The translations under genes and the position numbers were made by a program. The notes below the pieces were generated by a model, which was given only the letters and a program-made list of their open reading frames with translations, was not told the DNA's origin and did not search any database. From Candidatus Latescibacterota bacterium (GTDB lineage: Bacteria; Latescibacterota; UBA2968; UBA8231): a stretch of 64,000 bases of DNA. The stretch lies in assembly GCA_965204725.1 (NCBI GenBank), contig OZ242005.1:64001-128000 (forward strand), in the 5' to 3' direction. Below, piece after piece: positions 2,909 to 52,072 of this stretch. Within the stretch, counting starts at the first letter, position 1; each line of letters opens with the position of its first letter.

Positions 2909-3298
2909 CTACCGCGCCCCCGCGATCAATTGCTTCAGGTTACTCCACGTCCACTCATAAACCTTGTCTGAGCGGCGTGCCATGGCAGGTTTATGACATA
3001 CCTTCTTGGGGCGTCCCCACAGCAAAAAATATGGCTTCTGTTCTTCTTGAGTGATGGTTAGCTCAGCAGCCACACCCTTTGCATCATGGGTATGTTCGCC
3101 GCAAATGACGATGGTAAGGTCTGTCTCACATATACGCTCTCTCACCTTATCCTTCCATTTTTCGGCGAATGGTTCCTGCAAGGAATAATCTACAATCTCG
3201 AATGGCGAATCAGGATTTTTCGCTTGGCCCACCAAAGCATCTCGTAGCTCTGCATCGTGGTCGAAGTCGAAACTGATAAAGGCGCGTTTTGTGCTCAT
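2909..3298 (-). CDS. Stand-alone TIR domain protein (MTH538/DUF1863, Thoeris ThsB-like)
   Basis: [10 protein letters not shown] start, [17 protein letters not shown] with putative catalytic Glu, YEWTWSNL end; AGGAG RBS. Confidence 0.85.
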
Positions 3299-45379: not shown

Positions 45380-46336
45380 CTACTGGATGAAGGTCTCCTT
45401 TACGCGGCCCCAAGAATCTTCCTCGACCGAGGTGCCTCCTTGCGGGCCAGCCGGGTCATCCACAAAGACCCAGTTGGCGAACTCGGACTGGTTACCACCC
45501 GCCCAAGCCACGCACTGGATCTGGCCACCATAGGCGTCTTCGCCATCGGCGTCAACCAACAGCCAAGTGAAGCCCATCTCAGAACCAGCAGTGGGGGCTT
45601 CAAAGAGGTTGCCATTGCGCAGGAAGGTATCCCACTCCATCCGTCCCTCGATCACGTAGTCGGCATCGCCTTCGTCGCCAAACTCATCGCCGGCGTCACG
45701 GAAGCCATACTCAAAACCCTCAATTGCGTCGGGGTCGTGGACGTCCACGCGCTGGTTCTGCACGGTGGTGATGTAGCAGACGGACAGTTCGTTCGAGCCA
45801 AAAGGCACGGCCATGAAGTTGACCACATTCAGGTTGACGTACTCGCTGGTCGGGTCACCACCGGGGTGATCTTCGTTGTTCAGGTCGAGGTAAAGAGACA
45901 TGCTGTCGCGCTCCCACCAAGCCCGGGCCTCACCGCCGCCCTCAGTGTCGCGGACGTTATCGCTAACCTCGGTAATGTAGTACAGGGCATCGTCGTCCCA
46001 TGCCTGCAAAATCACCGAAGAGACATCGGCGTCAGTGCGGCCTTCACCAGCTACTTCGGTCTCGCCGTTTTCGTTAAGCTGGTTGGTGCTGACTTCACTG
46101 GACTGCTGCTCGATATTGCGCCAGCCATACTCTTGACCGTCGAGCTGAATTTGGCTCGGCGAGCAGTTGAATTCCAGCGCACCAGCCCACTCGTCAGCAA
46201 CGGTTTCGCGGTCGCCATCGAGCGTGGGGGGCTGGGTGAACTTGGGCAAGTCGAAGTAACGCACCGGTGGCTGGGCACTGGCTAGCGTCGTAAAACAAAG
46301 GGCCGCAATAGCGACCAAAAGAGTCAACTTCTTCAT
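45380..46336 (-). CDS. Exported CBM9/DOMON-like protein with C-terminal SWGxxK motif
   Basis: Signal ending ASA; PTLDG, AWDDDALY, WERDSMSLYLD, YVIEGRM; ends TSVEEDSWGRVKETFIQ; AAGGAG RBS. Confidence 0.7.
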   Translation of the reverse strand: MKKLTLLVAIAALCFTTLASAQPPVRYFDLPKFTQPPTLDGDRETVADEWAGALEFNCSPSQIQLDGQEYGWRNIEQQSSEVSTNQLNENGETEVAGEGRTDADVSSVILQAWDDDALYYITEVSDNVRDTEGGGEARAWWERDSMSLYLDLNNEDHPGGDPTSEYVNLNVVNFMAVPFGSNELSVCYITTVQNQRVDVHDPDAIEGFEYGFRDAGDEFGDEGDADYVIEGRMEWDTFLRNGNLFEAPTAGSEMGFTWLLVDADGEDAYGGQIQCVAWAGGNQSEFANWVFVDDPAGPQGGTSVEEDSWGRVKETFIQ

Positions 46337-46385
46337 TACTGCATCTCCTTAGCTGTGAGAAGTGGACGAAAAATTTGAATGGTGC

Positions 46386-46414
46386 ATAATAAATTCTCGC
46401 CAAAAGGCTGTCAA
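46386..46414 (-). promoter_or_regulatory. Sigma70-like promoter heading the envelope locus
   Basis: TTGACA-17 bp-TATTAT on the minus strand, about 50 nt above the ATG at 46336. Confidence 0.65.
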
Positions 46415-46498
46415 GAAAAAAGTTGCTCTACTAGCCCCTTCTACATTCGTCTGCGCCCCCTATCGTTTGTAGCCAATAAGGCCAGCGGGGGGCGGTAA

Positions 46499-46861
46499 TC
46501 AACCTTTCAACAAGATGCTCACAAGCAAGCCAACCAGCGCGACAAACGTTCCGATCTGGATGCCAATAAGCCAGTCAATGCGCCGGTTGACGGCAGCGAT
46601 GCGGCTATCGACAGAGGCGATGCGGCTATCGACAGAGGCAAAGCGACTATCGACAGAGGCGAAGCGGCTATCGACAGAGGCGAATCCTCGCTGCATGTCC
46701 TGTCGCAGCGCGGCAATCTCCTGTCGTAGCGAGGCAGTGTCCTCGCGGTGGTGAGTCTCGACCCGCTCCAAGTGACGCTCAATGGAGTCAAGCCGCTTGG
46801 ATAGCTCGGCGGCGACGCCGGGCAGCGGATCGGGTTTTAGTTCAGGAGGGGAGGTCGTCAT
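46499..46861 (-). CDS. Small coiled-coil protein with C-terminal membrane anchor (DUF1640/CCDC90-like), copy A
   Basis: AGGAG RBS; heptads incl. four (F/I)ASVDSR; hydrophobic tail WLIGIQIGTFVALVGLLVSILLKG. Confidence 0.75.
   Translation of the reverse strand: MTTSPPELKPDPLPGVAAELSKRLDSIERHLERVETHHREDTASLRQEIAALRQDMQRGFASVDSRFASVDSRFASVDSRIASVDSRIAAVNRRIDWLIGIQIGTFVALVGLLVSILLKG
46596..46679. repeat. 4 x 21-bp in-frame tandem repeat
   Basis: gcgatgcggctatcgacagag and variants. Confidence 0.9.
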
Positions 46862-46914
46862 GGTCTGCAACTCCTATCGTTTGTGGCCAATAAGGCCAGC
46901 AGGGTGGGTGGTAA

Positions 46915-47103
46915 TCAGCCTTTCAATAAGATGCTTACAAGCAAGCCGACCAGCACGACAAACGTTCCGATTTGAATGCCAATAAGCCAATCGAGGCGCC
47001 GGTTGATGGCGGCGAATCCTCGCTGCATGTCCTCTCGCAGCGCGGCAAGGTCCTCTCGTTGGCGAGTCTCGATCCGGTCCAAGCGACGCTCAATGGAGTC
47101 TTG
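46915..47103 (-). pseudogene. 3' part of coiled-coil gene copy B, separated from its 5' part by an insertion
   Basis: QDSIERRLDRIE...SILLKG*, collinear with copy A from residue 24 onward. Confidence 0.88.
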
Positions 47104-47271
47104 ACCCACAAAACAAGGAGCATCGCAAAAAAACCATCGCGGCGTTCCGGCAACTCGACAGGGATGGCGTCATTGACTTGCACCACGAGGGAGGCGCAAA
47201 GACGGGGCGTTGGCAGATATTCGCGCCGCCCAAATTCCGCGATGCCAATGCCGTTGAGCAAGCCTAATCCA

Positions 47272-47337
47272 CGACAAGCGGCCCCCCATTACTCGACAAG
47301 CGGCCCCCCATTGTTCGACAAGCGGCCCCCCATTGTT
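47272..47337. repeat. Three 22-bp direct repeats (iteron-like)
   Basis: cgacaagcggccccccatt(act/gtt/gtt). Confidence 0.85.
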
Positions 47338-47410
47338 GACCGCAAAATCGCCGCAAGTGAACAGGTGACAGGAACTTACAGCGATTTTCGCTGACTCCCC
47401 CCCTTACAAC

Positions 47411-47488
47411 CCCTTACTGCCCCAGAGCAGTAAGGGTGGTAGGAAGGGCTATGCCCGGGCCGCTGACGCTGGCATAGCCCTTCCTACC
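47411..47488. repeat. Two adjacent perfect inverted repeats (10-bp and 18-bp stems)
   Basis: cccttactgc/gcagtaaggg; ggtaggaagggctatgcc/ggcatagcccttcctacc. Confidence 0.85.
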
Positions 47489-47744
47489 CTCTATCCTTCT
47501 CCCAACGCTCACACGCGCAACACAGCGGCTAATCAGCGGTTTTTATCAGGGGGGCGGCGCGAAAGCCTCGCCAAGAGCGGCGAGTTTTTCGTACACTCTC
47601 TAAAAACCCGGACCGCGCGGTACTCGGCTTGCTCTTTTGCGGCGTGGGTGGACGAGCGGGCGGTACTTGGTCAATGACCCTCAGAACCGCTCAAAACGCT
47701 TAGGAGGCGTTACAGGGCGTTTAACGCGATGGAGGCAAAAAACG

Positions 47745-48461
47745 ATGCGTGGTAGGCCAATGAGGATGACGACGGCGCGGCTGAAAGCGATTGGGGAGCA
47801 TCTCGAGGAGGGCGACGACCTAATGGGCGCGTGCCACAAGGAGGGCGTAACGTTGTCCCTCTATAAGCGTGCCTACCGCAGGCTCAAGGCGAAGGACAAG
47901 GCGCAACGCAAGCCCACAGCACGGCTACGAGCGGCTTGGAAACAAACCCTTACGCCTATACGTGCGCGTATCGCGCCTACGCGAGGCGCAGGTAATCCGC
48001 GAGTGCGGACCGGCCCCAAGCAAGGCAAGCAAGGGCGCGAGGTCGTAGCCACAGCGGATAAGGTCCTTGAGGTTTTACAGGGCTTGACCTACGGCTATAC
48101 GTTGGCGGTGTCGTGCTCGATGGCAGGCTTGGCCGTTGGCACGTTCAAAAGCCGCAGATATGCTCTCCAGCGGATTGCGCCCGAACACTTGACGGACTGG
48201 GAACGCTTGACGCTCATGGCCTACGAGGCTTGCACGGAGGCGATCTATTCAGAGGAACGCCCCGACAACCCGCTCCAGCGCGTGGAGCGAGCCGTCCGAC
48301 ACTTCGAGGAGCGAGAGTGGCTTAACGGCCGTATCCTCAAATTCACGGAGCGGCAGTGGGGGCGCAACGATGGCTTACGCGCAGGGATGGCCGCGAACAA
48401 GGCGCGGATGCGTTCCGCGCTTTGGCAAGCGGGCGAGCACGAGCAGGCTCGCGGCGTATAG
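47745..48461 (+). CDS. Double-HTH protein resembling a phage terminase small subunit
   Basis: GGAGG RBS; MRGRP start; two GxxLxxxCxxxG(V/L)-type HTH units; WLNGR...ERQWGRND tail. Confidence 0.5.
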   Translation: MRGRPMRMTTARLKAIGEHLEEGDDLMGACHKEGVTLSLYKRAYRRLKAKDKAQRKPTARLRAAWKQTLTPIRARIAPTRGAGNPRVRTGPKQGKQGREVVATADKVLEVLQGLTYGYTLAVSCSMAGLAVGTFKSRRYALQRIAPEHLTDWERLTLMAYEACTEAIYSEERPDNPLQRVERAVRHFEEREWLNGRILKFTERQWGRNDGLRAGMAANKARMRSALWQAGEHEQARGV

Positions 48462-48495
48462 CCGTTATTCTAAGCAAGAGGGATAGGAGGTTGCT

Positions 48496-48885
48496 ATGGG
48501 CAAGATTACGACGGCGGTTTCAATGTGCTTGTCGCTGGCGTTGTATTGGCATTATTCGGCGGCGTTGGCAGAGGTCGAGGGAGAGCGAGACAAGGCGTTG
48601 GCGCACGTGGCAACGGTGCAGGCTCAGTTGACAGCGGCTATTGAGGAGCGAGACGAGCACAAGGCGATGAGGGACAGTGCAGGGGCGTCGGCGTGGCGCG
48701 AGGTGGTTCGGGCCGATGAGTTGCGGCAGGTGCTAAAGCAGATGCTGGAGGATAGGTGGCTATCCGCACAACGGGCCGCTCAGTTGTGCAGCGGTTGGAA
48801 CTGTGGTAAGCTGCGGGTGGAGGCTGAATTGTGGAAAGGTCGTTTTGAGGATTTTAACTATCGACGGCGCATTTTTTTTGATTAA
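48496..48885 (+). CDS. Hypothetical N-anchored coiled-coil protein
   Basis: GGAGG RBS; hydrophobic N-terminus; ERD-containing heptads. Confidence 0.6.
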   Translation: MGKITTAVSMCLSLALYWHYSAALAEVEGERDKALAHVATVQAQLTAAIEERDEHKAMRDSAGASAWREVVRADELRQVLKQMLEDRWLSAQRAAQLCSGWNCGKLRVEAELWKGRFEDFNYRRRIFFD

Positions 48886-49166
48886 AAGTCATTATTGATA
48901 AAACGGCATAATTATCGGCTGTTTTTCCATCGACGATCCTCGATCTACCGCGAATCGGCCCTTTTTCGGCATAATTATCAAGTTTTTGTGGTAAGCCAGC
49001 GGCGTTGCGGCTTGTGAACCTACTCTGCGGCTCCCTATATTGCCCGGCGCCGCGGCAACGCCCTGCTTGGAGCAAGGAAAGGCTAAGGTATGGTGCTCGG
49101 TTAGGAACGTGTTTATGTTGTGGTTCTATCGTATCTCAATAATCTTACACAAAAAGGAGTGTTGCG

Positions 49167-50411
49167 ATGAAATCGCTATTGGGATTTTTGGCGTGTCTGT
49201 TGGTGTTGGTGGCCGGTTGCGGAGAGGATACGAAGCGGTCAGTGGGGCCGTCAGCGGCGAAGGTGGCAAGTTCGACGCCTGAAACGGTGTGGACGGGTCT
49301 GAAGGCCGATGGCAAGTACACTACCGCAGGTTCGCCACTTGCGGCGTTTATAATGGCGGCTGGCGCGGGCGATCTGGCGGCGGTCAAGTTGTTTGTACAG
49401 GCGGAGGTCGATAAAGAGGGGCAAGCTATTGTCCACCTAGCGGGTATTGGTCGGTCACGGACTGCCCTTCATGCGGCGGCTCGTGGCGGTCATCGCGCAG
49501 TGGTTACGTACCTTCTCGGTCAGAGTGCGAGCGTCAGCAGTACGGACGGGAATGGGGACACGCCGCTACATGCGGCGGTTGAGGCAGGAAATCTTTTGAT
49601 GGTGCGGGAGCTTGTCGGTCAAGGGGCGAGTGTCGATGCTAAGAACACAGCAAGCGAGACGCCGTTGCATTTCGCGGTGACCCTAGGGCACTTGCTGATT
49701 GTGAAGTATCTGGAAGGGCAAGGAGCCGATCTTACGATCATCTCCACTGACGGCTTGACGCCCTGGGCGTTGGCGAAACTTTTTGGTAGTACGGCGATAG
49801 TGACGTTCTTGGATTCGACGACGGCGCGGGCTTTTGTTGATTCGGCTGGCGCGGGCAACTTAGAAGTTGTCAAGTCATTGGTAGCGGCGGGTATGCCGGT
49901 TGAGACTAAGGTCGAATACGATGGCGGGCGCGGTCCTAATTTTAATCCAAGCTGGACGGCACTGCTTAGGGCGGCGGGGAAGGGTCATCTGGCGGTGGTT
50001 GAGTATCTGATCGAGCAGGAGGCGGATGTGGATGCGGCGACCGCGATCTTCATAAACGATTTTCCTCTTAGTTTGTATTATGGCGAGACGGCTCTGTACT
50101 TGGCTGCGGGTGCTGGTCATGCGGCGGTGGTGAAGGTGTTGTTGGCAGCGGGTGCGACGGTGGATGCTAGGAACTATTATGCCTATACGCCTTTGCACCG
50201 GGCGGCGTTGTTTGGTCATCTGGCTATCGTCCAGTATCTGATTAGTTACGGGGCGGATGTGAATGCTGTGGCCGGCGTCAACGGTTCGGTTCGTTACTTG
50301 GCGGGGAGATGCGCCGAGAGGATTGATGCGGATCTATTTCCCGAAAAAATTGCCCGTTGCCGGTCGGTGGTGGCTTATTTAGACTTGCTGCCCGATGACG
50401 CTGACGAGTAG
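49167..50411 (+). CDS. Ankyrin-repeat lipoprotein
   Basis: AAGGAG RBS; lipobox VAGC; repeated TPLHxA/TALxxAA...GHxxxVxxL...GAxV. Confidence 0.93.
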   Translation: MKSLLGFLACLLVLVAGCGEDTKRSVGPSAAKVASSTPETVWTGLKADGKYTTAGSPLAAFIMAAGAGDLAAVKLFVQAEVDKEGQAIVHLAGIGRSRTALHAAARGGHRAVVTYLLGQSASVSSTDGNGDTPLHAAVEAGNLLMVRELVGQGASVDAKNTASETPLHFAVTLGHLLIVKYLEGQGADLTIISTDGLTPWALAKLFGSTAIVTFLDSTTARAFVDSAGAGNLEVVKSLVAAGMPVETKVEYDGGRGPNFNPSWTALLRAAGKGHLAVVEYLIEQEADVDAATAIFINDFPLSLYYGETALYLAAGAGHAAVVKVLLAAGATVDARNYYAYTPLHRAALFGHLAIVQYLISYGADVNAVAGVNGSVRYLAGRCAERIDADLFPEKIARCRSVVAYLDLLPDDADE

Positions 50412-50475
50412 GTTAGTCTGTCTTATTCGTTGGTAGGTTCGTAGCGGCCGTAGCGACCGCAGCGAATAGCTTGAC

Positions 50476-50509
50476 GCCCCGTAGCCCATACAGTGGCTAC
50501 GGGGCTTTT
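50476..50509 (+). terminator. Intrinsic terminator after the ankyrin gene
   Basis: gccccgtagcc/ggctacggggc stem + tttt. Confidence 0.75.
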
Positions 50510-50621
50510 CTCTGCCGCTTGACCGCCCCTAACGCACGGAACGATATTGAGCAATCCTTGTAAGGTGAACCACGTCGCGGCTGAACCACTGGCAACGTAA
50601 ACCGGGCGCGGCAAGTGAAGG

Positions 50622-50703
50622 AGCGGCGTTGGTTGGGCCGATTGCGTAAGCGCGGCCACCGGGCCGGTTTTCCCGGTTAGAGCGGCCAACGCCGCTTTTT
50701 TTT
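50622..50703 (+). other. Branched stem-loop ending in a T tract at the element's right end (possible sRNA or terminator)
   Basis: agcggcgttgg/ccaacgccgct closing stem, internal hairpins, followed by a T run. Confidence 0.5.
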
Positions 50704-50709
50704 ATGGGG

Positions 50710-50782
50710 CTTGCCGCTTGAATAGCTCGGCAACGACGCCGGGCAGCGGATCGGGTTTTAGTTCAGGAGGGGAGGTCGTCAT
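50710..50782 (-). pseudogene. 5' part of coiled-coil gene copy B
   Basis: MTTSPPELKPDPLPGVVAELFKR, near-identical to the N-terminus of copy A; GGGAG RBS. Confidence 0.88.
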
Positions 50783-51043
50783 GGTCTGCAACTCCCAATT
50801 TTTAACATAGCTGATAGATTAAAGATATAGACAAAATGCTTAGTACACGATAGTCACCCAAAGGACGTTACGCATATTTTCGCGCTGTGTGCTTGCCGAG
50901 CGGCGGCGAGAGGACGGACAGTTCTTGCATTGCCGTTTTCTTCCTCGTATCCTTCATGCAAAGTCGCCGGCCTTATCGCGCTTGCCCGCTGAGTTCCTCC
51001 CGCTAGTCGGCCTCGTCGCCGCGGAGATCGCACATTCAATCCC

Positions 51044-52072
51044 GTGAACCGTCTCTTCCTCATCGGATGGGCCGCCATCCTATTCGGCAACCAGCCAGCC
51101 AACGCCCAGCCGCACCTCTACACCATCGGCCTAGCCTTTACCGATCTCGTCGATCAAGAGGCCCTGCCCGTCCACCTCGCCGATCAACACCCCCTCTTAA
51201 TGCGGGAAATTGAGCGCACACTCAGCGACATCTTTGCCGACATAGGCCGCTTTCGCGCCGTGCGCTTGCGAAGCATGGGCGAGGCCCGCGATCCTAATCA
51301 AGGGGAAGAATCCGTCGATTACATCGCCCACTTCATGCTCAACAAGGCTTATAAAACATACCACAACAAGGTCATTCACTACGAGAACTTGGGCCTATTC
51401 GACGACGGAAGGCCGAGCGAAGACCGCTCTTATGAAGTGATTTCCCTGCCCGCCATCGTCGCCCAACTCGAAGTCAAGCTGGAGGACCCGCGCCGAGACA
51501 GAATTTTTTGGTCGGACTTGCGCGACTCGTCGGCCGTGATACCTTATGACAAACAACTATACCTTTATAATAGTTGGAAGTATCCGGGCGCGTCACATCC
51601 TAGTTTGACGCGCGCTTTCCTAGCCGACCTTCTCCGTTTGCAAATGGCCAATCCCTCCACAGAACGCGCCCTGAATGTCGCCGAACGCTGGTTTATCTCC
51701 AATCCCAGTAGCGACCTCGCCGTTGCCCGAGGGGTGTTAAAGGGCCTAGCGAGCAATCTAGCGCCCGACCTAGACGCGAATTTGCCGCTAGAGGGCCGCA
51801 TAGCAGCCCTATTACCCGCACGGAAAGGCAAACCCCACGTCCGGCTAAACATCGGCGCTCGGCACGGGTTGCTAAAGCGAATGCGGTTCGACGTGTGGCG
51901 GCCTAGGCCATCGCAGCAGAAAGTCGGGCAAATAGAGGTGGTCGAGATGGATTCCACTACGGCCATTGCTCGGCTGCGAAAACTCGACAAGGAACTCAAA
52001 AAACGCGGCGATAGCCTACAAATCCAAGACCGAGTCATTTCCCCCAAACGCCCTTTGAGGAGATCATTATGA
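51044..52072 (+). CDS. Exported protein with FlgT-like C-terminal domain
   Basis: Signal ending ANA; VRLNIGARHGL...FDV...VGQIEV...A. Confidence 0.6.
   Translation: MNRLFLIGWAAILFGNQPANAQPHLYTIGLAFTDLVDQEALPVHLADQHPLLMREIERTLSDIFADIGRFRAVRLRSMGEARDPNQGEESVDYIAHFMLNKAYKTYHNKVIHYENLGLFDDGRPSEDRSYEVISLPAIVAQLEVKLEDPRRDRIFWSDLRDSSAVIPYDKQLYLYNSWKYPGASHPSLTRAFLADLLRLQMANPSTERALNVAERWFISNPSSDLAVARGVLKGLASNLAPDLDANLPLEGRIAALLPARKGKPHVRLNIGARHGLLKRMRFDVWRPRPSQQKVGQIEVVEMDSTTAIARLRKLDKELKKRGDSLQIQDRVISPKRPLRRSL
52041..52072 (+). repeat. 32-bp direct repeat copy 1 (gene end + RBS + ATGA)
   Basis: cccccaaacgccctttgaggagatcattatga; 2 mismatches to 52396-52427. Confidence 0.9.

Follow-up and report, generated by a model that had tools for sequence, protein, structure and literature searches.

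In lambdoid phages, the region around the cohesive ends is ordered Rz, bor lipoprotein, cosN, the cosB R-sites and Nu1, and the core of the phiC31 attachment site is TTG. Among phage satellites, PICMI115 measures 6.1 kb, and all PICMIs covered by the report that describes it encode an integrase, AlpA and a primase (PMC10803314). Sponge phages have been reported to carry genes for secreted ankyrins beside terminase, portal and coat genes (bioRxiv 10.1101/608950), and in the account cited here the cleavage tetranucleotide of the insertion sequences IS801 and IS1294 is identical to the target (PMC13181058). Here we describe a 3.6-kb insert that shares features with each of these systems and that splits a small coiled-coil gene in the chromosome of a Candidatus Latescibacterota bacterium (GTDB lineage Bacteria; Latescibacterota; UBA2968; UBA8231). 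The window that was analysed is a stretch of 64,000 nt from GenBank assembly GCA_965204725.1, contig OZ242005.1, positions 64,001 to 128,000 (G000:C1:64001-128000 in our notation; the G000 assembly is 94% complete), and coordinates without a prefix refer to it. The insertion itself is real and clean, and we read it as a moron cassette of phage origin in the chromosome of a symbiont, which is a kind already known.

The host gene of the insert can be reconstructed. Slicing out 47104-50713 by script leaves a reading frame of 258 nt and 85 aa with an ATG start and no internal stop, as the first-pass annotation had claimed, and the product aligns end to end with both the intact tandem paralogue and an intact, collinear 85-aa orthologue in the congener G008 (locus L024, 277-534, uninterrupted). 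At the nucleotide level, the N-terminal part is 96% identical to the start of the paralogue over 83 nt and the C-terminal part 84% identical to it over 74 nt. The alignment to G008 is contiguous across the joint, with 47026-47101 matching L024 420-345 and 50715-50788 matching L024 341-271, and the G008 locus is thus an empty site in another species. The intact paralogue itself gave only weak XhlA and DUF7310 matches, all below the curated cut-offs. It contains four to five 21-bp tandem repeats (46573-46677), each coding for a 7-aa unit; contigs from two public sequencing runs, X4 and X5, skip 56-88 nt there, and therefore the repeat number of the paralogue differs between strains.

Table 1. 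Features of the split gene, its paralogue and the insert, in window coordinates.
Feature	Position	Strand	Remarks
Intact tandem paralogue (123 aa) of the split gene	46499-46870	-	Small coiled-coil protein, C-terminal membrane anchor
C-terminal part of the split gene	46915-47103	-	Stop codon 46915-46917
Left CTTG (flank side)	47100-47103	+	Paralogue has CAAG at the same place
Insert body, 3,606 bp	47104-50709	+	
Left arm of the terminal inverted repeat, ACCCACAAAA	47104-47113	+	
Three direct repeats, 22-bp spacing	47272-47337	+	19-nt cores identical (47272-47334)
Two strong hairpins (10-bp and 18-bp stems)	47411-47490	+	-34.7 kcal/mol, z = -6.6, 0/200 shuffles as good
Open reading frame (ORF) 1, 238 aa, all-helical, two helix-turn-helix (HTH)-like units	47745-48461	+	
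ORF2, 129 aa	48496-48885	+	N-terminal hydrophobic/membrane stretch, then charged coiled-coil-looking stretch (by eye)
AT-rich promoter module	48888-49093	+	Promoter-like site 49012-49041; common to several eukaryotic-like-protein genes
ORF3, ankyrin-repeat lipoprotein, 414 aa	49167-50411	+	Ank E = 1.8e-49, Ank_2 E = 4.9e-49; lipobox LVAGC (by eye)
Terminator-like hairpin of the ankyrin gene	50476-50505	+	11 pairs, 9 G-C, then T run
Small RNA (sRNA)-like unit	50519-50709	+	Ends at the right arm TTTTATGGGG
Right CTTG	50710-50713	+	Part of the terminal module
N-terminal part of the split gene	50714-50782	-	ATG at 50780-50782

The insert ends are symmetric. Just inside the two CTTG copies lie the arms ACCCACAAAA and TTTTATGGGG, which are complementary to each other in 8 of their 10 bases; this bears out the imperfect inverted repeat around CTTG that had been noticed at first. 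Such symmetry was matched by 0.03% of 2,000,000 random genomic 10-mers and was reached by 8 of the 30,783 10-mers located after a CTTG in the genome, a count that includes the real one; with free choice of register and length allowed for, it is significant at roughly the 0.3% level. Inverted sites around a common core, and an identical CTTG core at both junctions, are thus found here as in recombinase attachment sites. Both ends lie in non-coding DNA and all three insert ORFs are whole; this completeness and the symmetric ends speak for a defined unit that an enzyme recognises. No significant fold was found in the first 170 nt of the insert (47104-47270; z = 0.14), and the left end has no palindrome. 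Within G000, no second copy of the left end was found within 5 mismatches of 24, the right end matched only another copy of the sRNA module, no attP-like site occurs elsewhere and the only attB-like 32-mer is the intact paralogue. Contigs from two studies bridge the junctions with zero differences, one of 2,073 nt from run X1 on the left (46845-48917) and one of 337 nt from run X3 on the right (50634-50970), and given these the junctions are not assembly artefacts.

No mobility enzyme was detected in the insert, in agreement with the first-pass annotation, which had seen neither integrase nor transposase. ORF1-3 contain no integrase, recombinase, transposase, AlpA, primase or Rep in Pfam, PHROGs or PADLOC, and the same holds for an NCBIfam scan of ORF1 and ORF2. 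A Y2 HUH transposase (PF04986, NF033538, PF14319) was found neither in the insert nor in the 94%-complete genome, the control genomes lacking the first two of these families too, which limits the weight of this negative. The insert DNA is absent from 30 congeners, 2 of which show matches at the level of ankyrin repeats only, and ORF1 is absent from 131 other genomes of the class, with marginal matches in two (E = 0.005 and 0.009). Relatives of ORF1 were found neither in IMG/VR, where its distant relative P0003 was used as a query as well, nor in JGI metagenome contigs, nor by tblastn in GenBank phages, and the left 2 kb of the insert had no match among PLSDB plasmids. The proposed search for the same element elsewhere therefore divides in two: no copy of the left end and no viral, plasmid or metagenome relative was found, and the modules of the right half recur in the genome. 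Nor was there a sign of repeated use of the attachment site, as no other occupied site was found and a family member at C1:1.687 Mb is broken at a different position. The latter locus (L039, G000:C1:1687009-1687940) holds a further small coiled-coil gene, without its N-terminus, directly beside an ankyrin gene that is truncated at the 5' end. An sRNA module comes after the ankyrin gene, and 1 kb further on there is a gene for a tyrosine recombinase (1688930-1689910).

Parts of the window occur in public runs labelled sponge metagenome, and no RNA run was among those listed. The insert is present in X1 and X2, which come from one sample, and in X3 from another study. The circle junction and the exact empty site, which had been suggested as checks, were not among the joints listed in contigs of four public runs, a kind of evidence (assembled contigs) that drops rare forms. 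A joint in X3 marked as going back 1293 was considered as a circle and rejected, being the junction of tandem ankyrin paralogues. X4 has no contig cover on 47120-48759 and neither X4 nor X5 on 47120-47611, gaps that prove nothing. One X4 contig of 155 letters is identical to 46960-47100 and deviates from the window in its last 14 letters. A tail of this length would be expected of a 31-mer unitig if the copy in that strain were uninterrupted like the paralogue, and the departure after 47100 is a hint of a recent insertion event. A metagenome scan for the uninterrupted site, using the paralogue sequence with NN at the variable pair, gave 4 matches, none of them window-like beyond the pattern. 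The lack of a recombinase, of other copies and of circles argues for a single event made in trans.

The insert is a mosaic of DNA of phage type, and its left half contains the direct repeats, the hairpins and ORF1. The 22-bp repeat has no further copy in the genome within 2 mismatches and recurs at 3 places with 3 mismatches. Its 19-nt core has no exact match in IMG/VR and one among public genome contigs, a single copy in a metagenome-assembled genome of an unrelated Opitutus, where about 4 would be expected by chance according to our estimate. Located some 400 bp upstream of ORF1, the repeats are candidate binding sites of its product, either pac/cosB-like or iteron-like, and repeats and hairpins together might form a replication origin; ORF1 matches no Rep family and weakly resembles small terminase and HTH proteins. 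Three weak lines suggest that ORF1 is small-terminase-like, and it is otherwise an orphan: a match of residues 2-36 to phrog_1482 (E = 6.7e-4), a lead from its ESM-atlas neighbours, which are Sf6_terminase or HTH_23 clusters (0.91, 160 features in common), and similarity to a phage co-assembled with the genome. This phage, the second contig of the assembly (C2), is a circular unit of 34,918 bp with 63% G+C that was assembled with a 16.8-kb terminal overlap. Residues 103-192 of ORF1 are 27% identical over 90 aa to an ORF that overlaps the start of its large-terminase gene terL (BLASTP E = 4e-6), and in a genome search ORF1 matched this same ORF, just upstream of terL in the small-terminase position, with E = 3.8e-4. 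Both P0003 and the C2 protein align to the C-terminal 140 residues of ORF1, which therefore has an extra N-terminal HTH unit. C2 (loci L045 and L046) also encodes a scaffold, a neck protein, a primase/helicase, three DNA methyltransferases and a 2,460-aa ORF; no integrase was seen among the 25 C2 ORFs scanned.

Among billions of proteins, ORF1 has just 1-2 relatives. One cluster at 90% identity holds proteins 97% and 92% identical to it beside the window's own, a fragment cluster (P0006) is 85% identical and the distant P0003 is 34% identical (E = 1.7e-4). P0006 sits on a public contig of 3,637 bp, a length that may be compared with the 3,606 bp of the insert plus a 31-mer overlap. In X5, a contig that covers ORF1 (47720-48418, 99% identity, 8 differences) opens with 38 letters that are not in the window, and therefore ORF1 also exists in another upstream context.

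The right half holds ORF2, the ankyrin lipoprotein gene and the sRNA-like unit. ORF2 found only itself among 5.8 billion protein clusters and has no family in Pfam or PHROGs; its architecture, resembling that of an i-spanin, is a weak lead. The promoter module occurs at four other places in the genome, with 97% identity at C1:3471152-3471356 and 83-93% at three more (BLAST against the genome itself), and ORF3 has a paralogue of 86% identity inside an ankyrin array (C1:2558358-2559733). In the sRNA-like unit, a promoter-like TTGACC-N18-GATATT (50519-50548) is followed by a 5' part that varies and a Y-shaped terminator that is conserved (about 50622-50705). Its module is present in five copies in G000 (5 nhmmer matches, E <= 1e-33); the corresponding model R1 finds only 2 marginal matches in 30 congeners, and the module family is lineage-specific. 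In Rfam, the region 46000-51500 gave one sub-threshold match (Hrs13, 21 bits against a cut-off of 52 bits) and nothing on the sRNA-like module. Two other identities were rejected for this end of the insert. As a guide of the bridge/seek-RNA or omega-RNA kind, the sRNA module offers one 8-nt complementarity to the right junction, seen by eye and with an estimated chance probability of about 8%, and the other copies offer none. An integron gene cassette would carry attC, with the consensus RYYYAAC ... GTTRRRY and a G/TT crossover, and the stem arms here, GTTGG ... CCAAC, have the reverse of that order. With respect to the inventory given in the first-pass annotation, the three repeats, the hairpins, the coiled-coil-looking ORF2 and the ankyrin lipoprotein all hold, and the terminase-small-like character of ORF1 is supported by weak lines only.

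The same modules accompany eukaryotic-like-protein genes elsewhere in G000. At C1:3.471 Mb (locus L038), a 56-nt remnant of the 3' end of ORF1 (95% identity) is followed by the promoter module (97%) and a leucine-rich repeat (LRR) lipoprotein gene. Further along this locus (G000:C1:3471040-3473500) come an sRNA module, a gene for a secreted coiled-coil protein with PEEQE repeats and another sRNA module, and the whole looks like a two-cassette array. A phage remnant lies at G000:C1:3847528-3852507 (L037). It holds, in this order, a fragment of a large-terminase gene, a gene for an LRR lipoprotein with a copy of the sRNA/terminator module after it, and genes for an HNH endonuclease and a major head protein. 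As this module copy and its lipoprotein gene lie between the terL fragment and the HNH and major head genes, the combination of promoter, eukaryotic-like-protein gene and sRNA module behaves like the moron of a phage.

The explanation that we favour, tentatively, is that the insert is a non-autonomous cassette of phage origin, composed of a packaging end plus a moron, which was integrated once at CTTG by an enzyme acting in trans and is not self-mobile. Its left half would be a packaging-recognition module made up of the symmetric end site, the 22-bp repeats as binding sites, the hairpins and ORF1 as a small-terminase-like DNA-binding protein. Its right half would be a late-region block, with the spanin-like ORF2, the ankyrin lipoprotein moron with its own promoter and terminator, and the sRNA. 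Closed into a circle, the insert would run from the spanin-like gene through the lipoprotein moron, the symmetric site and the repeats to the terminase-small-like gene, and since this order matches that of the lambdoid cohesive-end region, the insert may be read as two phage-genome ends without the middle. The likeness comprises a membrane/coiled-coil gene, lipoprotein cargo, a partly symmetric site, direct repeats and an HTH gene of small-terminase type; unlike the lambdoid region, the insert has no large terminase or other phage gene after ORF1, ORF1 has its extra N-terminal HTH unit, and the 4-bp core is far shorter than known phage cohesive ends, the cut and binding sites being putative. 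The DNA may have entered in the form of a small circle, or else as linear DNA whose cohesive ends were short, through one conservative exchange at CTTG, with the integrating enzyme supplied in trans by phage or host. Today it would be a fixed insertion that has knocked out one paralogue and from which a secreted ankyrin lipoprotein and an sRNA are expressed. The CTTG pair fits three routes, namely a conservative exchange between circle and gene, an HUH-type insertion and the filling-in of short cohesive ends. The ankyrin lipoprotein fits the theme of phage-borne ankyrins in sponge symbionts as far as it is set out for the Ankyphages (10.1101/608950), with which the insert shares a secreted ankyrin-repeat protein tied to phage packaging and structural genes in a sponge-associated bacterium. 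In contrast to those phages, the ankyrin gene lies here in a 3.6-kb chromosomal insert, carries a lipoprotein signal and has close paralogues that are chromosomal.

Several observations weigh against this cassette explanation. First, the rejoined junction codon is CAA (Gln), whereas the homologues compared all have Leu at this conserved coiled-coil position, encoded by CTT in the paralogue and by TTA in G008 and one G007 copy. At the left junction the split copy has GTC-TTG on the + strand and the paralogue GTC-AAG-CCG, and therefore the core before insertion may have been CAAG and not CTTG; beside the right junction, the divergence between split copy and paralogue is high (5/24 positions). 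The event may thus have been untidy, and two readings of the codon remain, in which the split copy may already have held both changes before the insertion or the insertion event may have replaced 2-4 bp. Of the earlier claim that the split is precise and that excision would restore the gene, the restored frame holds, and the Gln in place of the conserved Leu and the possible CAAG core leave an exact restoration doubtful. Second, the right CTTG is also present in the module copies at C1:1.687 Mb and 3.472 Mb, where the sequence after the module is different and belongs to a 5' leader that both copies share and that precedes another gene. As the right CTTG is thus part of the module, CTTG may mark the border of a module and not a crossover core; we infer the single conservative exchange from the CTTG pair alone. 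Third, ORF1 has no match in Pfam or NCBIfam, a sequence profile search of the PDB with it gave nothing below E = 0.7, and a Foldseek search of the PDB returned nothing at E <= 0.001, Sf6 gp1 at rank 20 (E = 3.3) not being evidence. Its structural models are of low confidence, with a predicted local distance difference test (pLDDT) score of 49.6 from the single sequence and 62.7 from an alignment of 8 sequences. For ORF2, the spanin-like character comes from DUF2570-type clusters at 0.88, below the lead threshold. Fourth, the link to C2 as a helper consists of 27% identity, and C2 has neither the repeats nor the attP-like site. Lastly, no phage with this gene order was found, and the lambdoid parallel is a tentative one.

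Among the alternatives, the first-pass annotation had proposed a minimal satellite or integrative circle mobilised in trans, an interpretation that is partly supported as a whole. As an active element of this kind, the insert would excise at CTTG through a recombinase acting in trans, a helper phage would identify it by the repeats and the terminase-small-like product of ORF1 and package it as concatemers, and the host gene would be restored. We regard this as unlikely. The attP-like symmetry around the core, the terminase-small-like gene with repeats upstream, the whole genes and the non-coding ends are what such an element would show, the co-assembled phage C2 has a distant homologue in the position of the small terminase, and the contig with the 85%-identical ORF1 fragment is close to the insert in size. 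In the published account a satellite of 6.1 kb is packaged as concatemers, but the known satellites treated there all encode their own integrase and excision factors (PMC10803314), and the insert has no integrase, excisionase, primase or Rep. Like the PICMIs and other satellites, the insert is small, chromosomally integrated and possibly related to packaging; unlike the PICMIs, it measures 3.6 kb and lacks integrase, AlpA and primase. With the attP and attB sites of serine and tyrosine integrases it has in common a very short core flanked by an imperfect inverted repeat, donor and target being otherwise little alike, yet it carries no integrase and has no similar site elsewhere in the genome. 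No second copy of the ends, the repeats or the attP-like site exists in the genome, the viral collections hold no relatives and the restored gene would have Gln at the conserved Leu. The word depth of the left-junction contig in X1 (115) is like that of the flank contigs (111 and 104), a weak hint against an active element. A self-contained circle is further disfavoured by the right 1.8 kb, which is built from modules that recur at other G000 loci.

We likewise consider it doubtful that the insert is a random phage or chromosomal fragment, captured by illegitimate recombination at the level of microhomology and having neither defined ends nor a function as a unit. A common core of merely 4 bp, a unique left end, a junction codon unlike that of the homologues compared and the foreign 38 letters that open the X5 contig of ORF1 would all agree with such a capture. 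So would the right half, which is pieced together from modules dispersed in the genome, with degraded parts at other loci, and the genome has at least 15 full-length, weakly Rpn-like genes, copies of which occupy the same hot spot in relatives. Against random capture, an 8/10 symmetry of the ends is expected at only about 3 in 10,000 sites, both breakpoints lie outside genes with the three ORFs complete, and no target bases have visibly been lost if the site is read as CTTG.

A somewhat less probable variant is a "cosmid-like" hitchhiker that lacks both integrase and replicase. Its 3.6 kb would hold only a packaging signal (the symmetric cut site, repeats bound by the small terminase, and ORF1 as its own terminase-small-like protein) and host-interaction cargo (the ankyrin lipoprotein and the sRNA), would be cut and packaged by a helper as concatemers and would re-enter at CTTG by means of helper or host enzymes. 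Packaging as concatemers would remove the size problem of a 3.6-kb insert. If true, the hitchhiker would have roughly half the length of the smallest satellite characterised so far and would serve to spread eukaryotic-like proteins among sponge symbionts.

A non-autonomous rolling-circle element of the IS91/ISCR-like HUH type, inserted 3' of a target CTTG and with its own CTTG after a subterminal palindrome at the far end, is very improbable. As in the IS91 family in the form in which it has been described (PMC13181058), CTTG adjoins one end, a tetranucleotide follows a palindrome at the other and there is no classical duplication; the right CTTG, moreover, is part of a conserved module and follows a strong palindrome. 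However, the insert and the 94%-complete genome contain no Y2 transposase, although PF04986 and NF033538 were missing from the control genomes too, the presumed origin end has no palindrome (z = 0.14), and the element occurs as a single copy with no further copies of the left end. With its T run, the right palindrome reads as the usual kind of terminator for an sRNA unit that has a promoter of its own. At the left end, where the target in this family would be CTTG or GTTC, the insert adjoins a CTTG and the paralogue has CAAG. Least probable of all is a non-autonomous DDE transposon with cargo, similar to a miniature inverted-repeat transposable element (MITE), with a 4-bp target duplication: it would account for the short imperfect terminal inverted repeats and the 4-bp direct repeat, but there is no autonomous partner and no other genome copy with the same ends, the right CTTG belongs to the module and not to the target, and a CAAG target would leave CAAG and not CTTG on both sides.

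Sponge symbionts have a hallmark in their eukaryotic-like proteins, ankyrin and LRR proteins among them, the spread of which is only partly understood. At the present locus, an ankyrin gene would be travelling in a 3.6-kb unit of phage packaging-end DNA. Elsewhere in G000, too, LRR and ankyrin genes are framed by these promoter and sRNA/terminator modules, once within a phage remnant, and this points to small phage-derived cassettes as a vehicle. If it is true that the unit is packaged and re-integrated without a recombinase of its own, the known size and gene content of satellites would be lowered. If it is only a dead insertion, it would be an ordinary, though tidy, phage moron left in the chromosome.

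The surroundings of the insert are chromosomal. Pfam searches on 41 of the 47 window ORFs of at least 110 aa returned ordinary chromosomal genes and no phage or integrase genes; five of the remaining ORFs lie in the insert region and were scanned separately. The insert is absent from all 18 congeners searched, each of which shares at least one flank (45380-46336 or 51044-52072). In eight of them (G001, G003, G004, G005, G006, G009, G011 and G012) only 48-70 bp separate the two flanks. G008 has one intact copy of the small gene at the spot, G007 has small-gene copies beside each flank with the flanks at different places, and in G010, G013, G002 and G014 the spot is occupied by 1.2-4.6 kb of different DNA, with an IS1-like gene, an IS110 transposase and Rpn-like genes. 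As the DNA at this intergenic spot (window 46435-51023) is varied or absent across the congeners, it is a hot spot in the genus, and the paralogue pair and the insert are particular to the G000 lineage.

Several other genes were observed in the genome and the window. The Rpn-like genes belong to a family of about 300-330 aa with a weak Rpn signal (TIGR01784, E = 4.4e-5, below the cut-off; for example G000:C1:2561118-2562101), for which tblastn gave 18 matches of at least 150 aa, of which 15 span the full length; members of the family are found next to ankyrin loci and, in relatives, in the hot spot, and PF04754 (Transposase_31) fails to detect them. A Y1 transposase domain of the IS200-like/REP-associated kind (47.9 bits; G000:C1:1910658-1910888, locus L009) lies in frame within an open frame of more than 1,000 aa. 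The window also contains a gene for an LRR protein at 857-2449 and one for a ThsB-like TIR domain protein at 2909-3298.

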